64,000 bases of DNA from Shigella phage JK32. Location: sequence record MK962753.1; one strand, written 5' to 3'. Below the pieces are notes generated by a model, which did not search any database, was not told where the DNA came from, and saw nothing but the letters and a program-made list of their open reading frames with translations. The position numbers and the translations under genes were made by a program. Below are positions 39,520-44,920 of the stretch, piece after piece (position 1 is the stretch's first letter; each line of letters starts with the position of its first letter).

Positions 39520-39548
39520 ATTATACACTATTGCGTTACGCTGTCAAC
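39520..39548 (-). promoter_or_regulatory. early promoter
   Basis: TTGACA, 17 nt, TATAAT. Confidence 0.6.
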
Positions 39549-40774
39549 TCTTTTTCAAAAGTTTTTACGATATACATGATAGTGCTCAATTCTGACGGCG
39601 CTACTGTTTCTGTGTAGCCATCCGGCATATCTTCTTTTGAGATATAGGAAGTTTTACCTTTCATCGCTTCCTTGATCTTGTTCTCTAATTCTAAGATCTT
39701 TTGACCATCTTGTAAAGTCAATTCATAAAAGATCTCGTGATCGAATTTAGATTTTGCTGATTGGTTTCTCATACGTTCTCTTGTTGTCAAATTGGTTATT
39801 CCAAATTTAACACCTTCAAAAACGTCTCGTCTTAACAATTTTTGAATATATAATGTTCCTTGTTTTAAACGTTTGTAACCAGATTTCGTACACGAAGGAC
39901 ATCTCTTATGCGTTCTTGTTATGCTATGTATAGTTGGTGTCCAGACGCTACCACATCCACATAACATTGATATTCTTGTTGATGACCCGTTATACTCATC
40001 GATAATTCCATTATATTTGATGTTTTCGGATTTACATATAGAGTATATTATTTTTTCATAGTGCTCTAATGGTTTAATTCTAAGACTTGAATTATTTTTA
40101 TATGCACATATTCTGCAATTATAACCTCTAAGAAAACTAGTTACATCAGTTGTATATGCGTGACCTCCGGTGCATTGTATAGTAAGTTTGGTATCATGTG
40201 TGATATCGTTATCAAGTAAAGTTATTATTTTGTAATTAATTGCTGAACATCTTTTCAAGATTTCTGATTTGTAATACGTTGATTTTTTATTCGTCTCTTG
40301 TATATTTTTTGTGTGACATTGTGGACATCTAGTTCCTTTCTTGGTGAAATGTGTTACTGTTGGTGTATATATGTGTCCATCTAAACATTCAATCATTATT
40401 TTTGTTTTTAATTTATTCGAAGTCCATTCACCAACAACGCCACGATATTTCAACTTTTCGGATTTACATATTTCTATAATTTGTTTCTCTTGTTGTTCTT
40501 TTGTTATATATTCTCGCTTCTTGCTTTTTTGTTTTGCACATTTTGGGCATCTACTGCCTTGTTTTATACTAGATACGATAGGTTCCCAATAATGACCGCA
40601 CTTACAAAGTAAGGCCGTGCGAGTTCTATTCCCGATACATTCACCAATAAACCCCAAAAAGTTTATATCATCGGAAGAACACACATCGTGCATAAATTTT
40701 TCATGTTCTAACATCTTTTTAATTTTGCTGGTGGATAGCATATTGACTATATCTTTAACGAAATATGTTTTCAT
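39536..40774 (-). CDS. zinc-ribbon repeat protein with GIY-YIG/T5orf172-like C-terminus (putative homing-endonuclease-like accessory gene)
   Basis: ATG at 40774 with SD GGAGGA; four ~60-aa repeats C-x-C-G-H ... CPxC; C-terminal KFGITN ... R ... PDGYTET; paralog of 4159..5244. Confidence 0.7.
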   Translation of the reverse strand: MKTYFVKDIVNMLSTSKIKKMLEHEKFMHDVCSSDDINFLGFIGECIGNRTRTALLCKCGHYWEPIVSSIKQGSRCPKCAKQKSKKREYITKEQQEKQIIEICKSEKLKYRGVVGEWTSNKLKTKIMIECLDGHIYTPTVTHFTKKGTRCPQCHTKNIQETNKKSTYYKSEILKRCSAINYKIITLLDNDITHDTKLTIQCTGGHAYTTDVTSFLRGYNCRICAYKNNSSLRIKPLEHYEKIIYSICKSENIKYNGIIDEYNGSSTRISMLCGCGSVWTPTIHSITRTHKRCPSCTKSGYKRLKQGTLYIQKLLRRDVFEGVKFGITNLTTRERMRNQSAKSKFDHEIFYELTLQDGQKILELENKIKEAMKGKTSYISKEDMPDGYTETVAPSELSTIMYIVKTFEKELTA

Positions 40775-40802
40775 TTTTATCCTCCGTTGTTTCGATGAGT
40801 GC

Positions 40803-40830
40803 ATTATACATTATCTCGGATCGGTGTCAA
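40803..40830 (-). promoter_or_regulatory. early promoter
   Basis: TTGACA, 16 nt, TATAAT. Confidence 0.6.
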
Positions 40831-40900: not shown

Positions 40901-41848
40901 TCACATAGCCAACAAGCTATCAAGGTCATCCAGATCAGAAGCGGAGGAACTACCGCCACCCAGATCCAGAGATGTCATCAGATCATCAGCGGAAGAACTC
41001 GACGCGGTGCTCATTGCGCTAGTTCCTGCATCGAATGCATTCATCTGAGCATCAAAATCATCAAGCTGGCTGTTAATCGCTGCCGCAGCACCAGAAGCCG
41101 AAGCACCAGCTACCAGACTTACACCTTTAACTTTCTTAAATTTAGCATCCAGTTCCTCGAAAGATTTAAACTGGTCTTTTGCTACGATAACATCAATATC
41201 TACCATGTTTTCGAACAGATATTTCTGGAATGCTTCATCTTCGATGTTCGGAATCGCTGATTGCTGCATGAAACGTGAATCATCGTAGTTCAGGAATTTA
41301 TCTACTTTCTTAGCTTTCAGAAGGAAGTTAGCGCCTTCGAACGGACATACGATGTTTACAGGTTTTTCGCCCAATTCCGTGTTTACGTTGCTCATTGCCA
41401 GAATCTTGTCATAAATTTTCTTACCGAAGCGGAATTTAAATACTTTACCTTCGTTTTCCGGCGCTTTCGGATCTTTCATGACCAGAATGTTTGCGAAGTA
41501 AGAAGATTTACGCTTAACATCTTGATATTCTTTATTGTTGGTGTTGTACAGGTCATTTTCGCTAATGTATTTGCACACAGGGCAAGAATCAAAATCACCG
41601 TGGGTGCTAGGGCAGTTTTCCCAATAATACTTACCATTTACTTTGAAAGAATGGTTTACAAGGTTGATGATCGGTAAACCGTCTTCGGTGCGTGCTGGAA
41701 GAAAACGAATCACCGCTTCACCGTTACCCGCCGCGTCAGTTTTAATCTTCCACTCTTTCGGATCTTCTTTGGAGAAACCGTTGCTACCTTTCAGTGCTGC
41801 CAGTTGAGCTTGCAGTTTGGAAGAATCTTGACGACGAAAAATGTTCAT
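40901..41848 (-). CDS. 32: single-stranded DNA-binding protein gp32
   Basis: Matches remembered T4 gp32 (GNG-AVIRFLP, acidic Ser/Asp-rich C-terminus); ATG at 41848 with SD AAGAGGT. Confidence 0.9.
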
Positions 41849-41890
41849 AATTATACCTCTTTTATACATTAACTATTAATTTGCTAGACT

Positions 41891-41918
41891 ATTATACAGA
41901 TTTAAATTTACTTGTCAA
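41891..41918 (-). promoter_or_regulatory. sigma70-type promoter upstream of gene 32
   Basis: TTGACA, 16 nt, TATAAT. Confidence 0.55.
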
Positions 41919-42595
41919 CTATTTGTTTCGGCTTTTAATTGAGATATTTCTTTACACTCTTTAACTACTTTAACAAATAATGCTCTTGCTTTTGCGGCGT
42001 CAATAACAAGTAGTTTCTTGTACGCCTTCATTTTAACACTATAAGTTTGCCAAATCAAGTCTTTGGCTACCTTGTCGTGTTCGTCGATTATATTTAGAAA
42101 GCTATCTAACAACATAAACGACTCAAACGATATAATCCGATTTTGCAGTAGTTTAAAGATACCGCTAGTTTCGGTTGCGGGATTGTATGTAATTAGCTCT
42201 TTAAGAGTAACCCCGCGTTTCTCGGAGAAGTATACCAGACTTTTAATGTCATCGTCAAATCTTGTTGCTGCATCGGTTATCTTTCCTATGTATTCCATAT
42301 AAAAGCCGTATGCGTCAACATCAGTGATTTCACCTACCCATGCATCGGTATTGGCTACCAGATTGCTTAGGAATAGAAAGTATAATTCTCTTAGATTGTA
42401 CTTTTCCGCTAATTTTGCGAAATAATACTTATCTCTGCGTTTATTGAATGCGGCATCAGACAACCGCATCCTCCAATTGTATTTTACGCAATCATAACGC
42501 CCGTTCATATGAGCTTTCATCATGCAATATAACATATACACAGATTTAGCATTAATTCGCATATCTGGATCTGGAGGAAGACGGTTTCTGATCAT
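41915..42595 (-). CDS. 59: helicase loader gp59
   Basis: Strong match to remembered T4 gp59 (KSVYMLY..HMNG..KYNW..RRDKYYF). Confidence 0.9.
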   Translation of the reverse strand: MIRNRLPPDPDMRINAKSVYMLYCMMKAHMNGRYDCVKYNWRMRLSDAAFNKRRDKYYFAKLAEKYNLRELYFLFLSNLVANTDAWVGEITDVDAYGFYMEYIGKITDAATRFDDDIKSLVYFSEKRGVTLKELITYNPATETSGIFKLLQNRIISFESFMLLDSFLNIIDEHDKVAKDLIWQTYSVKMKAYKKLLVIDAAKARALFVKVVKECKEISQLKAETNS

Positions 42596-42604
42596 ACATA
42601 CCCC

Positions 42605-42874
42605 TTAAATATCGAGAGTGTTGGTCGGTTCGTCGATCACTCCCTTCCTGAGCGTTCTATTTACTATACATTCTTGTGTGATCTTGTCAATAATGGACAC
42701 CGGAATATACTTCTGATAGTGACCATATTCGATAGAGTTTTCCTCTACAAACTGAGTTGTCGCTTCAAGATAAGTCAATCCCTCTTCAACAACCAGTTTT
42801 TCGATTGCAAGACCGTTTGCTGTTTTGTTCGCGGCTTTTACCGCATGTTCATTAAGCATTGAACACCCGATCAT
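42605..42874 (-). CDS. 33: late transcription accessory protein gp33
   Basis: Resembles T4 gp33 core (LEATTQFVEENSI, C-terminal TNTLD); start ambiguous (42874 or 42859). Confidence 0.65.
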   Translation of the reverse strand: MIGCSMLNEHAVKAANKTANGLAIEKLVVEEGLTYLEATTQFVEENSIEYGHYQKYIPVSIIDKITQECIVNRTLRKGVIDEPTNTLDI

Positions 42875-43127
42875 AGAGTTCTACTGCTTCGTCGCGTTCT
42901 GCTTCGAAGGTTTCGCGCTGTTGTTGGTGATACAGTTTAAACAGAATGCCCCACATTTTACCGTCTACGCCTAATTCTTCTTTAGCACGCTGCTTGATCT
43001 CTTTGATCTTATCGCCGTATGCTTCTTGAATGGTTTTCTGATCGCTGGCTTCTTTAATCAGTTGTGCCAGGGTATTTCCGTGCACTGCTTCATCAAATAC
43101 TACTTTTTCTTTTTTCTGTTCAGTCAT
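42852..43127 (-). CDS. dsbA: double-stranded DNA-binding protein DsbA
   Basis: 91 aa, size and position as T4 dsbA; SD AAGAGGG. Confidence 0.75.
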   Translation of the reverse strand: MTEQKKEKVVFDEAVHGNTLAQLIKEASDQKTIQEAYGDKIKEIKQRAKEELGVDGKMWGILFKLYHQQQRETFEAERDEAVELYDRVFNA

Positions 43128-43131
43128 AATA

Positions 43132-43728
43132 TTAACCCTCTTTAATCATTAATTGAAAACCACGTTCAGCTTTTGAGATTTCGCTAGGACTTAAATCATC
43201 GCTGACATATTCTAGCATCATTTCTCTGATAATGTCAAGTGCTTTTTCATCACCTGATTTTAACTCGAACTCAAGTTCATAGTGGGCATCGCCCATTCCT
43301 TCGTCTAAACGTCGATAATAGAAAGTGTCTTTGCACATTTCCACTATACCACAACCCATATCTAGAGTCAATGACTTGCGATGTGTCATTATCTGCATTA
43401 GAGGAATGACATGTTCTGAGTTCACCCCTAGACTATCAACAAAATGGGCGAACTCATCCCATTTTGAAAACGTCACTTCCTCACGGTTGAACAGTCCAGA
43501 TTCACTATCTCCAATTTTGACCATGACTAATGTTCTGTAAACGTCAAGTCGTGCATAAATTCCTTTTCGACGTAGTGCATGGTCTTCGGTGTCATAATAA
43601 AACTCGTGTTTTAATATGTTATCTCTGTCTACGAGATTGTACCCGTCATACATTGCTACCCACACATCATGGATTGTTTCTACACCTTCCTGTGAGTGTG
43701 CATAGTATTTTAATTCAAGTTCTTTCAT
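43132..43728 (-). CDS. CYTH-like (triphosphate tunnel metalloenzyme-like) protein
   Basis: 198 aa; N-terminal ELELKYY (ExExK-type) and further acidic beta-strand motifs (YELEFEL). Confidence 0.5.
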   Translation of the reverse strand: MKELELKYYAHSQEGVETIHDVWVAMYDGYNLVDRDNILKHEFYYDTEDHALRRKGIYARLDVYRTLVMVKIGDSESGLFNREEVTFSKWDEFAHFVDSLGVNSEHVIPLMQIMTHRKSLTLDMGCGIVEMCKDTFYYRRLDEGMGDAHYELEFELKSGDEKALDIIREMMLEYVSDDLSPSEISKAERGFQLMIKEG

Positions 43729-43738
43729 GTGTCAACCC

Positions 43739-44686
43739 TTAGAACTCACCAATTTTCTGCAACATTTTAACTAACGCATTTGTTACAAAATAGTTATAAA
43801 TCTTACCGCGTGGTGCTGGTTTAGATTTTTCCCATTCTAACAAAATTTCATATTCGATGTTATCGGGAATAAATTCAAAATCAATAAGTTCGCGGTTTTC
43901 GTCAAAACGTCGTGCTTCTTCCTCTGTCATCAAAGACTTTGGATCTTCGGCATTGAAAATTTGCTCTAACCATTTGGTTGCAATTGGTTTAGCTCGTTCC
44001 CCTTCCAGTCGTGAGATAATGAAATCACTACGGCACTTGATAGAAGCTACACCGTCTTTTGCGTCACCCTTAACACATTTTACCATAAGGTCTTTGTAAG
44101 GGCTACCATATTTGCATTTCTTCCATGCTTTCTGTACTGGCGCCCACTGTTTCACGTTTTTGTATTTGTGCAACTGTGTGTAGTCACCATCGCCGGAGTT
44201 GATTAGCACCTGGCGACCTTCTACAGAAAACTTTTTAGTTAACACAGCGATTATATCATCCGCTTCAACTTTGTCAACCTTAATAACGTGATAAGGCATG
44301 TTCTCTTTAAACTCTTCGGTGATCTTATTGATCGCAGCAAAGATCATCTCCCAATCACGCGGATCTGCGTCTCGTTTTTCCTTACGGTTACGCTTGTAAT
44401 AAGGTGCGATATCACGTCGCCAGTAACCTTTGCTTGAATCAAAAGCAAGTACCGTGATTGGGTATTGCTCTTTGAATTTTGTCATATTATAACGCATGGT
44501 GTCAAGAATAAGATGACGGATCATGCCTTCACTAATAGGATCTTCCGGTTTAAAGGTATGCGAGATAGTAGCAATCATAAGCTGCGACATATCAATCAAA
44601 TGCACACCTTCCGGTAGTTTATCTTCTGGATCATCGAAGAAATCATTAAGTGTAGCGGTAGTTTTTGTAAACGGGTTATACGTCAT
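43739..44686 (-). CDS. rnh: RNase H / FEN-family 5'-3' exonuclease
   Basis: 315 aa; matches T4 RNase H blocks (SGYWRRD..YYKKNR, KYEADD). Confidence 0.85.
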   Translation of the reverse strand: MTYNPFTKTTATLNDFFDDPEDKLPEGVHLIDMSQLMIATISHTFKPEDPISEGMIRHLILDTMRYNMTKFKEQYPITVLAFDSSKGYWRRDIAPYYKRNRKEKRDADPRDWEMIFAAINKITEEFKENMPYHVIKVDKVEADDIIAVLTKKFSVEGRQVLINSGDGDYTQLHKYKNVKQWAPVQKAWKKCKYGSPYKDLMVKCVKGDAKDGVASIKCRSDFIISRLEGERAKPIATKWLEQIFNAEDPKSLMTEEEARRFDENRELIDFEFIPDNIEYEILLEWEKSKPAPRGKIYNYFVTNALVKMLQKIGEF

Positions 44687-44688
44687 AA

Positions 44689-44874
44689 TTAAGTTCTCTC
44701 CACTCTCACAACAACATATTCGCCAAACGAGTTAGATACTTCACGATCATACCCGTATTTCTCCATAACTCGCAGAATTGCATTGTTTAATTCGGCACGG
44801 AAATAATTGTAATCCTTATCAGGGATTCTGTCAACTATCCATTTTGCACCGTCTGACAAATCAACTTTAACCAT
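44689..44874 (-). CDS. hypothetical small protein (61 aa)
   Basis: SD AAGAGGA. Confidence 0.5.
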   Translation of the reverse strand: MVKVDLSDGAKWIVDRIPDKDYNYFRAELNNAILRVMEKYGYDREVSNSFGEYVVVRVERT

Positions 44875-44912: not shown

Positions 44913-44920
44913 TATAAATA
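44913..44920 (+). promoter_or_regulatory. late promoter box TATAAATA upstream of gene 34
   Basis: Exact TATAAATA ~29 nt upstream of ATG 44949. Confidence 0.55.

Follow-up and report, generated by a model that had tools for sequence, protein, structure and literature searches.

The 64,000-nucleotide stretch of Shigella phage JK32 analyzed here (sequence record MK962753.1; hereafter the window) derives from an RB49-like T4-type phage (Krischvirus) and carries a gene for a protein with a CYTH domain, the fold of the triphosphate tunnel metalloenzymes (TTMs). An earlier note on this DNA had described a protein of 198 amino acids starting with MKELELKYY, and the listing of open reading frames (ORFs) confirms it as the only long ORF at this place, with an ATG start (Table 1). 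Its strand, which the earlier note did not give, is the minus strand (43728->43132); ORFs of 56-71 amino acids on the plus strand within the gene are without support. The identical protein is deposited for Shigella phage JK32 as QEG05552.1, under the name “hypothetical protein.” The location in the conserved 33-dsbA-rnh cluster was described correctly as well, with all neighboring genes lying on the minus strand and being identified by Pfam and PHROGs. Since rnh directly abuts dsbA in T4, with no gene in between, the CYTH gene is a lineage-specific gene inside an otherwise conserved cluster.

The proposal that the protein adopts a CYTH fold is backed by both profile search and structure prediction. 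The Pfam profile CYTH (PF01928) matched residues 1-190 with 29.6 bits (gathering threshold 23.2; E = 7.3e-7), the match spanning profile positions 1-178 of 179, and no second domain was found. Of the CYTH and CHAD profiles with which a comparison had been suggested, only the former thus gave a hit; for CHAD there was no Pfam match at E <= 1, and the protein ends at residue 198, directly after the plug helix. Together with this E-value, homologs in 58 phage genomes and a ratio of non-synonymous to synonymous substitution rates (dN/dS) of 0.15-0.22 argue against a chance similarity. With a profile built from 13 phage homologs, the inorganic triphosphatase (PPPase) YgiF of Escherichia coli (5a60) was the sole PDB match by sequence (residues 3-195), and an hhalign comparison of the phage clade with 146 YgiF-like proteins yielded a probability of 100% and E = 2.3e-39 over 182 aligned columns. 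No match of any kind was obtained in NCBIfam, no family of the PADLOC models for anti-phage defence and anti-defence was hit at E <= 1, and the same applies to the Pfam profile mRNA_triPase (PF02940) of Cet1-like RNA triphosphatases at E <= 1.

Structure prediction, likewise suggested in the earlier note, returned a confident AlphaFold model (predicted local distance difference test, 90.5; predicted template modeling score, 0.84) with the expected run of long β-strands followed by a C-terminal helix (186-196). The predicted fold is an eight-stranded antiparallel β-barrel tunnel with a C-terminal plug helix, and it is matched by an independently made BFVD model of this same protein, with a template modeling (TM) score of 0.95.

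Table 1. Features of the CYTH locus and of the encoded protein (positions in the window unless a residue or another record is named).
Feature	Position	Strand	Remarks
CYTH / triphosphate tunnel metalloenzyme gene	43132..43728	-	198 codons + TAA stop at 43132-43134
Ribosome-binding site AAGGG	43736..43740	-	7 nucleotides before the CYTH ATG; read from sequence
ExExK motif E3-L-E5-L-K7	43708..43722	-	E3, E5: metal site 2 ligands (YgiF E4, E6)
Strand β3 motif Y58-A-R60-L-D62	43543..43557	-	R60: catalytic Arg (YgiF R56)
Strand β8 E151-L-E153-F-E155-L-K157	43258..43278	-	E153: metal 1 (YgiF E160); E155: metal 2 (YgiF E162)
Start of C-terminal plug helix, S185-K186-A-E-R189-G190	43159..43176	-	YgiF SKAARG, K191, R194
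Allelic cassette, codons 8-146	43291..43707	-	far more diverged among Krischvirus genomes than flanks
Position 9	residue 9		Tyr in phage clade; variable among relatives
Position 40	residue 40		Lys in phage clade; Leu in 84/147 relatives
Position 42	residue 42		Glu in phage clade; mostly Asn, Asp or Ala in relatives
Position 58	residue 58		Tyr in phage clade; small residue in 127/147 relatives
Position 136	residue 136		Phe in phage clade; Gly in 112/147 relatives
Position 138	residue 138		Tyr in phage clade; mostly Ile or Val in relatives
Position 149	residue 149		His in phage clade; mostly Ile, Leu or Phe in relatives
rnh (T4-type RNase H / 5′-3′ exonuclease), upstream of CYTH	43739..44686	-	Pfam RNaseH_C, 5_3_exonuc_N
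dsbA (late-transcription dsDNA-binding protein), downstream of CYTH	42852..43127	-	Pfam Phage_DsbA
gp33, downstream	42605-42874	-	Pfam/PHROGs
gp59, downstream	41915-42595	-	Pfam/PHROGs
gp32, downstream	40901-41869	-	Pfam/PHROGs
HNH homing-endonuclease genes in other records	L002 5802-6398; L008 5043-5606 and 8562-9158

Catalytic Residues

The acidic β-strand motifs mentioned in the earlier note are present as E3-x-E5-x-K7 and E151-x-E153-x-E155-x-K157. The ExExK motif is invariant across the phage clade and kept in 138-141 of 147 relatives; of the two basic residues of the plug helix, the Lys is found in 146/147 and the Arg in 130/147. In YgiF, the ligands of metal 2 are E4, E6, and E162, and this metal activates the water for attack; metal 1 is liganded by E160, and R56 is the proposed proton donor (Martinez et al., 2015; PMC4641920). 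Residues of the phage protein map to all five of these mutationally validated positions, including a hydrolase-type ExE on strand β8, where E153/E155 align with E160/E162. Judged from the alignments, the full two-metal set of E3, E5, E153, E155, and R60 is present. Further conserved tunnel residues are K7, K71, R82, E84, R117, D134, K186, and R189.

The position of the catalytic Arg depended on the alignment register. Pairwise HMMER and a MAFFT alignment of 10 sequences placed YgiF R56 opposite Tyr58, which would imply an inactive or cyclase-like enzyme. This register was rejected, as a glycine specific to YgiF had served as its anchor. In a MAFFT alignment of 151 sequences and in hhalign, G56-I-Y58-A-R60-L-D62 aligns with the family consensus g-x-a-l-R-i-R; the gap-free spacing from D46 to R60, counted from the YYD motif, is 14 residues and equals that from E42 to R56 in YgiF; and the family pattern G-[VI]-x-x-R likewise puts R60 on the catalytic Arg. 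Therefore, R60 is taken as the catalytic Arg.

Atypical Tunnel Lining

When the phage clade was compared with the 147 nearest CYTH representatives, several positions deviated from the family (Table 1). Strand β3 lacks a complete RxR motif: the second Arg, present in 142/147 relatives, is replaced by Asp62, a residue found at this position in none of them (0/147), and the clade member P0045 has Asn there. This Arg is not superfamily-defining, cyclases lacking the first one. At the position equivalent to 58, Trp or Tyr is a signature of thiamine triphosphatases, which read W/YxRxR (PMC8233210); Krischvirus alleles read Y58-x-R60-x-D62, and Val or Ile occupies position 58 in P0044, P0045, and P0192. 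By their strand parity with known lining residues in the predicted strands, the atypical positions probably face the tunnel.

The tunnel residues are essentially invariant over 10 allele classes whose identity in the remaining cassette falls to 23-43%, so that the lining is selected rather than a product of drift. The clade-specific combination of Y58, D62, K40, E42, F136, Y138, H149, and Y9 suggests a specificity unlike that of YgiF.

Comparison With Known Proteins of the Fold

By both sequence profile and fold, the best match is E. coli YgiF (PDB 5A60/5A61), a CYTH-CHAD protein. The two proteins have in common ExExK, the glutamates of metals 1 and 2, the catalytic Arg, K71, R82, E84, R117, and SKxxRG. 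However, they are only 23-24% identical, and YgiF comprises 433 amino acids including CHAD, whereas the phage protein comprises 198 without it. Substitutions from YgiF to the phage protein affect the second RxR Arg (Asp62), Gly54 (Tyr58), Leu36 (Lys40), a Gly (Phe136), and an Ile (His149), and the β3-β4 hairpin is two residues shorter in the phage protein. The phage gene does not have the appearance of a ygiF gene recently acquired from the host.

Stand-alone bacterial CYTH/TTM proteins of about 200 amino acids (Bacillus halodurans BH2851, PDB 2GFG; metagenomic P0046, P0049-P0066) resemble the phage protein in being single-domain, of similar length, and equipped with the same catalytic set. 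Nevertheless, the phage clade is isolated from them, an exhaustive hidden Markov model search among 1.84 billion representatives yielding only 6 clusters at E <= 1e-10, beyond which follow many bacterial CYTH proteins, either stand-alone or fused to CHAD. The mammalian 25-kDa thiamine triphosphatase (PDB 3BHD/5A64) is 13% identical and has the full W/YxRxR motif in place of the YxRxD of the phage protein. Class IV adenylate cyclases (CyaB; PDB 2FJT/3N0Y) belong to the same Pfam family and fold, but the phage protein is without their HF motif and keeps the second ExE Glu and the gatekeeper Arg. The only other widespread viral enzymes with a TTM fold are the Cet1-type and giant-virus RNA triphosphatases of mRNA capping; these have the same two-strand acidic metal site but fall into another Pfam family, are 10-14% identical, and are built into the large capping enzymes that eukaryotic viruses encode.

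Allelic Variation and Distribution

Codons 8-146 of the CYTH gene form an allelic cassette. Its DNA is 70-90% identical to that of RB49 and 48-60% to that of Skers, whereas the flanking rnh and dsbA are 95-100% identical. Synonymous divergence (dS) in the cassette reaches 0.61 and 2.4, whereas the flanks have values of 0.04-0.18 (3-14 times lower). At least 10 allele classes can be distinguished at 80% identity, and the breakpoints of the cassette coincide with two conserved motifs, MKELELKYY and HYELEFELKSG. With a dN/dS of about 0.2, the cassette is under purifying selection. Local positive selection as the origin of this island of divergence was rejected, because dS is elevated in parallel with dN and their ratio remains at that low value; the pattern is best read as recombinational exchange of old alleles. 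The faster evolution of the gene is also seen across the clade: in six relatives, the CYTH protein is 83, 57, 51, 41, 34, and 37% identical to that of the window, and DsbA, in the same order, 100, 99, 82, 78, 70, and 81%. The base composition of the gene is like that of its neighbors, and neither Rfam matches (E <= 1) nor repeats overlapping the gene were found around it.

A tblastn search detected the CYTH gene in 58 phage records, all of them RB49-like. The same records carry the rnh backbone (58/58), hence all sampled genomes of the genus possess the gene; a pattern scan of viral contigs added at least two further loci. In every clade member with a readable contig (P0043, P0044, P0045, P0192) it lies directly upstream of dsbA and gp33, a position held down to 34% identity, with rnh upstream where the contig extends that far. 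In two records the gene appears interrupted. In a metagenomic copy (L008 6759-7361), a single nonsense change turns codon 106 from CAA into TAA, and in phage G2494 (MK327935.1) the match is split into two parts, with two ORFs annotated there. Each of these copies represents a null allele or else a sequencing error.

Proposed Activity and Alternative Explanations

That the protein belongs to the family and has its fold, that every catalytic residue is conserved, and that the gene is under purifying selection is directly supported by the observations above. On these grounds, we consider it likely that the gene encodes a catalytically competent single-domain TTM, namely a YgiF-type CYTH tunnel domain without CHAD. 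Since the two-metal residues are present, the cyclase motifs discussed below are absent and no CHAD domain follows, the protein is most likely a Mg/Mn-dependent triphosphate phosphohydrolase, an assignment that we regard as putative. By homology, tunnel binding of a triphosphate with two-metal hydrolysis at its terminal phosphate is well supported as the chemistry; the activity itself and its substrate we infer from characterized relatives. Inorganic triphosphate (PPPi) is a tentative candidate for the substrate, its scavenging being one conceivable role, and a nucleoside or other organic triphosphate is an equally tentative one; a substrate of some other kind is only slightly less probable. 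As to its role, we expect an accessory enzyme of metabolism during infection that is not essential.

A mechanism can be derived by homology with the crystal structures of YgiF, AtTTM3, and SaTTM. The triphosphate would sit centrally in the eight-stranded β-barrel, held by K7, R60, K71, R82, R117, K186, and R189. Metal 1 would bridge E153 and the triphosphate, while metal 2, bound by E3, E5, and E155, would activate water for an in-line attack on the terminal phosphate, with R60 assisting the leaving group. Orthophosphate and the diphosphate form of the substrate would be the products, and no cyclic nucleotide would be formed.

Several points weigh against this assignment. Asp62 in place of the second Arg could lower or redirect the activity, and the placement of the atypical residues in the tunnel follows from strand parity in a predicted model. 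The nonsense codon in L008 implies that loss of the gene may be tolerated and, together with the two-piece match in G2494, that the gene may be dispensable. In the literature on phage CYTH proteins, neither biochemical data nor an assigned role were found. YgiF itself is specific as a PPPase and depends on Mg; it does not hydrolyze ATP, GTP, ITP, PPi, or polyP, it is not known to have a physiological role, and a ygiF knockout of E. coli shows no detectable change in PPPase activity.

A rival reading is that of an adenylate or other nucleotidyl cyclase of class IV (CyaB-type) making cAMP or another cyclic nucleotide to manipulate the host, and GenBank orthologs such as MK573636.1, OR352938.1, and OR525698.1 are indeed labeled “adenylate cyclase.” Class IV cyclases are marked by an HF motif that lies four residues ahead of ExExK; in addition, Ala substitutes for the second ExE Glu and a small residue for the first RxR Arg (Vogt et al., 2021; PMC8233210). 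None of these signatures is found: ExExK is preceded by Met1-Lys2 only, the second Glu is retained as E155, and the gatekeeper first Arg is retained as R60. With these three motif tests failed, no NCBIfam match, and a nearest relative, YgiF, without cyclase activity, the cyclase reading was rejected and is very unlikely to hold. It follows that these product names in several GenBank phage records are probably wrong, being most likely mis-annotations inherited from the CYTH family name. The neighborhood of rnh could instead point to an RNA or primer 5′-triphosphatase cutting the γ-phosphate from 5′-ppp ends, either of the pentaribonucleotide primers removed by RNase H or of transcripts. Such a role is quite improbable: the mRNA_triPase profile did not match, the likeness to this group is much weaker than that to YgiF, and the model contains a C-terminal plug helix, as TTMs acting on small molecules typically do. 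Moreover, adjacency indicates function only weakly in T4-like genomes, and T4 does without such a gene.

The allelic diversity, read as the trace of an arms race, might speak for an enzyme that counters defence or manipulates the host by destroying a triphosphorylated signal or alarmone, with pppGpp, (p)ppApp, or a ppp-oligonucleotide intermediate as candidate molecules. Within a block that is otherwise 95-100% identical, no other gene comes near it in variability, its many allele classes recombine, and the atypical tunnel lining is strictly conserved. Nevertheless, low dN/dS with a parallel rise of dS indicates that old alleles were exchanged and does not indicate positive selection, the variable positions all lie outside the catalytic tunnel, as they would for any enzyme with few partners, and neither a PADLOC match nor a link in the literature was found, which leaves this explanation with a small chance. 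For phage CYTH triphosphatases, including jumbo-phage CYTH/MazG enzymes, a role in clearing canonical nucleoside triphosphates so that modified nucleotides get incorporated has been proposed (Iyer et al., 2021). This proposal was rejected for the present gene and is exceedingly improbable here, since RB49 has no hydroxymethylase and its DNA has experimentally been found unmodified; in addition, ATP, GTP, and ITP are not hydrolyzed by YgiF. Finally, the Krischvirus clade might constitute a distinct TTM subfamily with a tunnel adapted to an organic triphosphate rather than to PPPi and a cassette reflecting host conflict. The tunnel of the clade, remodeled yet strictly conserved, combines Tyr58 at the stacking position of thiamine triphosphatases, Asp62 replacing the γ-side Arg, the gained Lys40/Glu42, and the aromatic cluster of Tyr9, Phe136, Tyr138, and His149; a 5′-ppp primer or RNA end, an alarmone, or the precursor of a nucleotide immune signal may serve as example substrates. 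Taken as a whole, this interpretation is unlikely. A YgiF-type triphosphate phosphohydrolase remains the preferred assignment.

The CYTH assignment is already known at the annotation level and has been recognized since 2003-2006. The GenBank record of RB49 notes its ortholog as “similar to ... ygiF,” RB49ORF244c is listed as “CYTH domain” (Nolan et al., 2006), and precomputed Pfam matches are attached to most homologs, with the label “inorganic triphosphatase” in some records. New here are the corrected motif analysis and the clade-specific tunnel signature as well as the genus-wide universality, the positional fixation, and the allelic cassette. To our knowledge, no phage-encoded triphosphate tunnel enzyme has been characterized. 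An ortholog group that is universal in one genus, with a strongly constrained unusual active site and many exchangeable alleles, would be of modest value if followed up, as it could reveal what a triphosphatase does during infection.

Expression Signals and Neighboring Genes

The stop codon TAA of rnh (43739-43741) is overlapped by the ribosome-binding site of the CYTH gene, and only 4 nucleotides separate the CYTH stop from the ATG of dsbA. The CYTH gene is probably translationally coupled with rnh and dsbA, and co-transcription with rnh, dsbA, and gp33 is probably the simplest expectation. No T4-type late promoter (TATAAATA) was found on the strand of the CYTH gene near the locus. The only motif of this type (TATAAATA) in the vicinity lies on the plus strand at 44913-44920, 29 nucleotides upstream of the start of gene 34 (44949). 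Upstream of the CYTH gene, the minus strand carries several sigma-70-like sites, which are consensus matches only; promoter-like sites in the region number 20, with 7.8 expected. One of them, inside rnh at 44277-44250 (minus strand), is a perfect 12/12 sigma-70 consensus (TTGACA-16 nucleotides-TATAAT) with an extended -10 TG and points toward CYTH, dsbA, and gp33.

Between gene 34 and rnh lies a small conserved ORF of 61 amino acids (44689-44874, minus strand; phrog_3594, no known function), which also occurs in RB49, Skers, and L008 and is not present in T4. HNH homing-endonuclease genes are variably present in the region, namely in the gp59/gp32 gap of Skers and L008 and in the gap between gene 34 and the small ORF of L008. 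The window has no HNH gene at either site; T4 carries segG at the 59/32 junction. Downstream of gp32, an ORF of 422 amino acids (39536-40804, minus strand) encodes four zinc-ribbon-like repeats of the form C-x-C-G-H...C-P-x-C, and relatives of its C-terminal part (RB49p240, SKERS_100) bear endonuclease or GIY-YIG family labels; it is probably a homing-endonuclease-like gene. The gp32 gene of the window is itself a diverged allele, with 63-90% DNA identity per 60-nucleotide bin to RB49 and Skers. These two are about 100% identical to each other in gp32, making the window allele another mosaic segment of the cluster.
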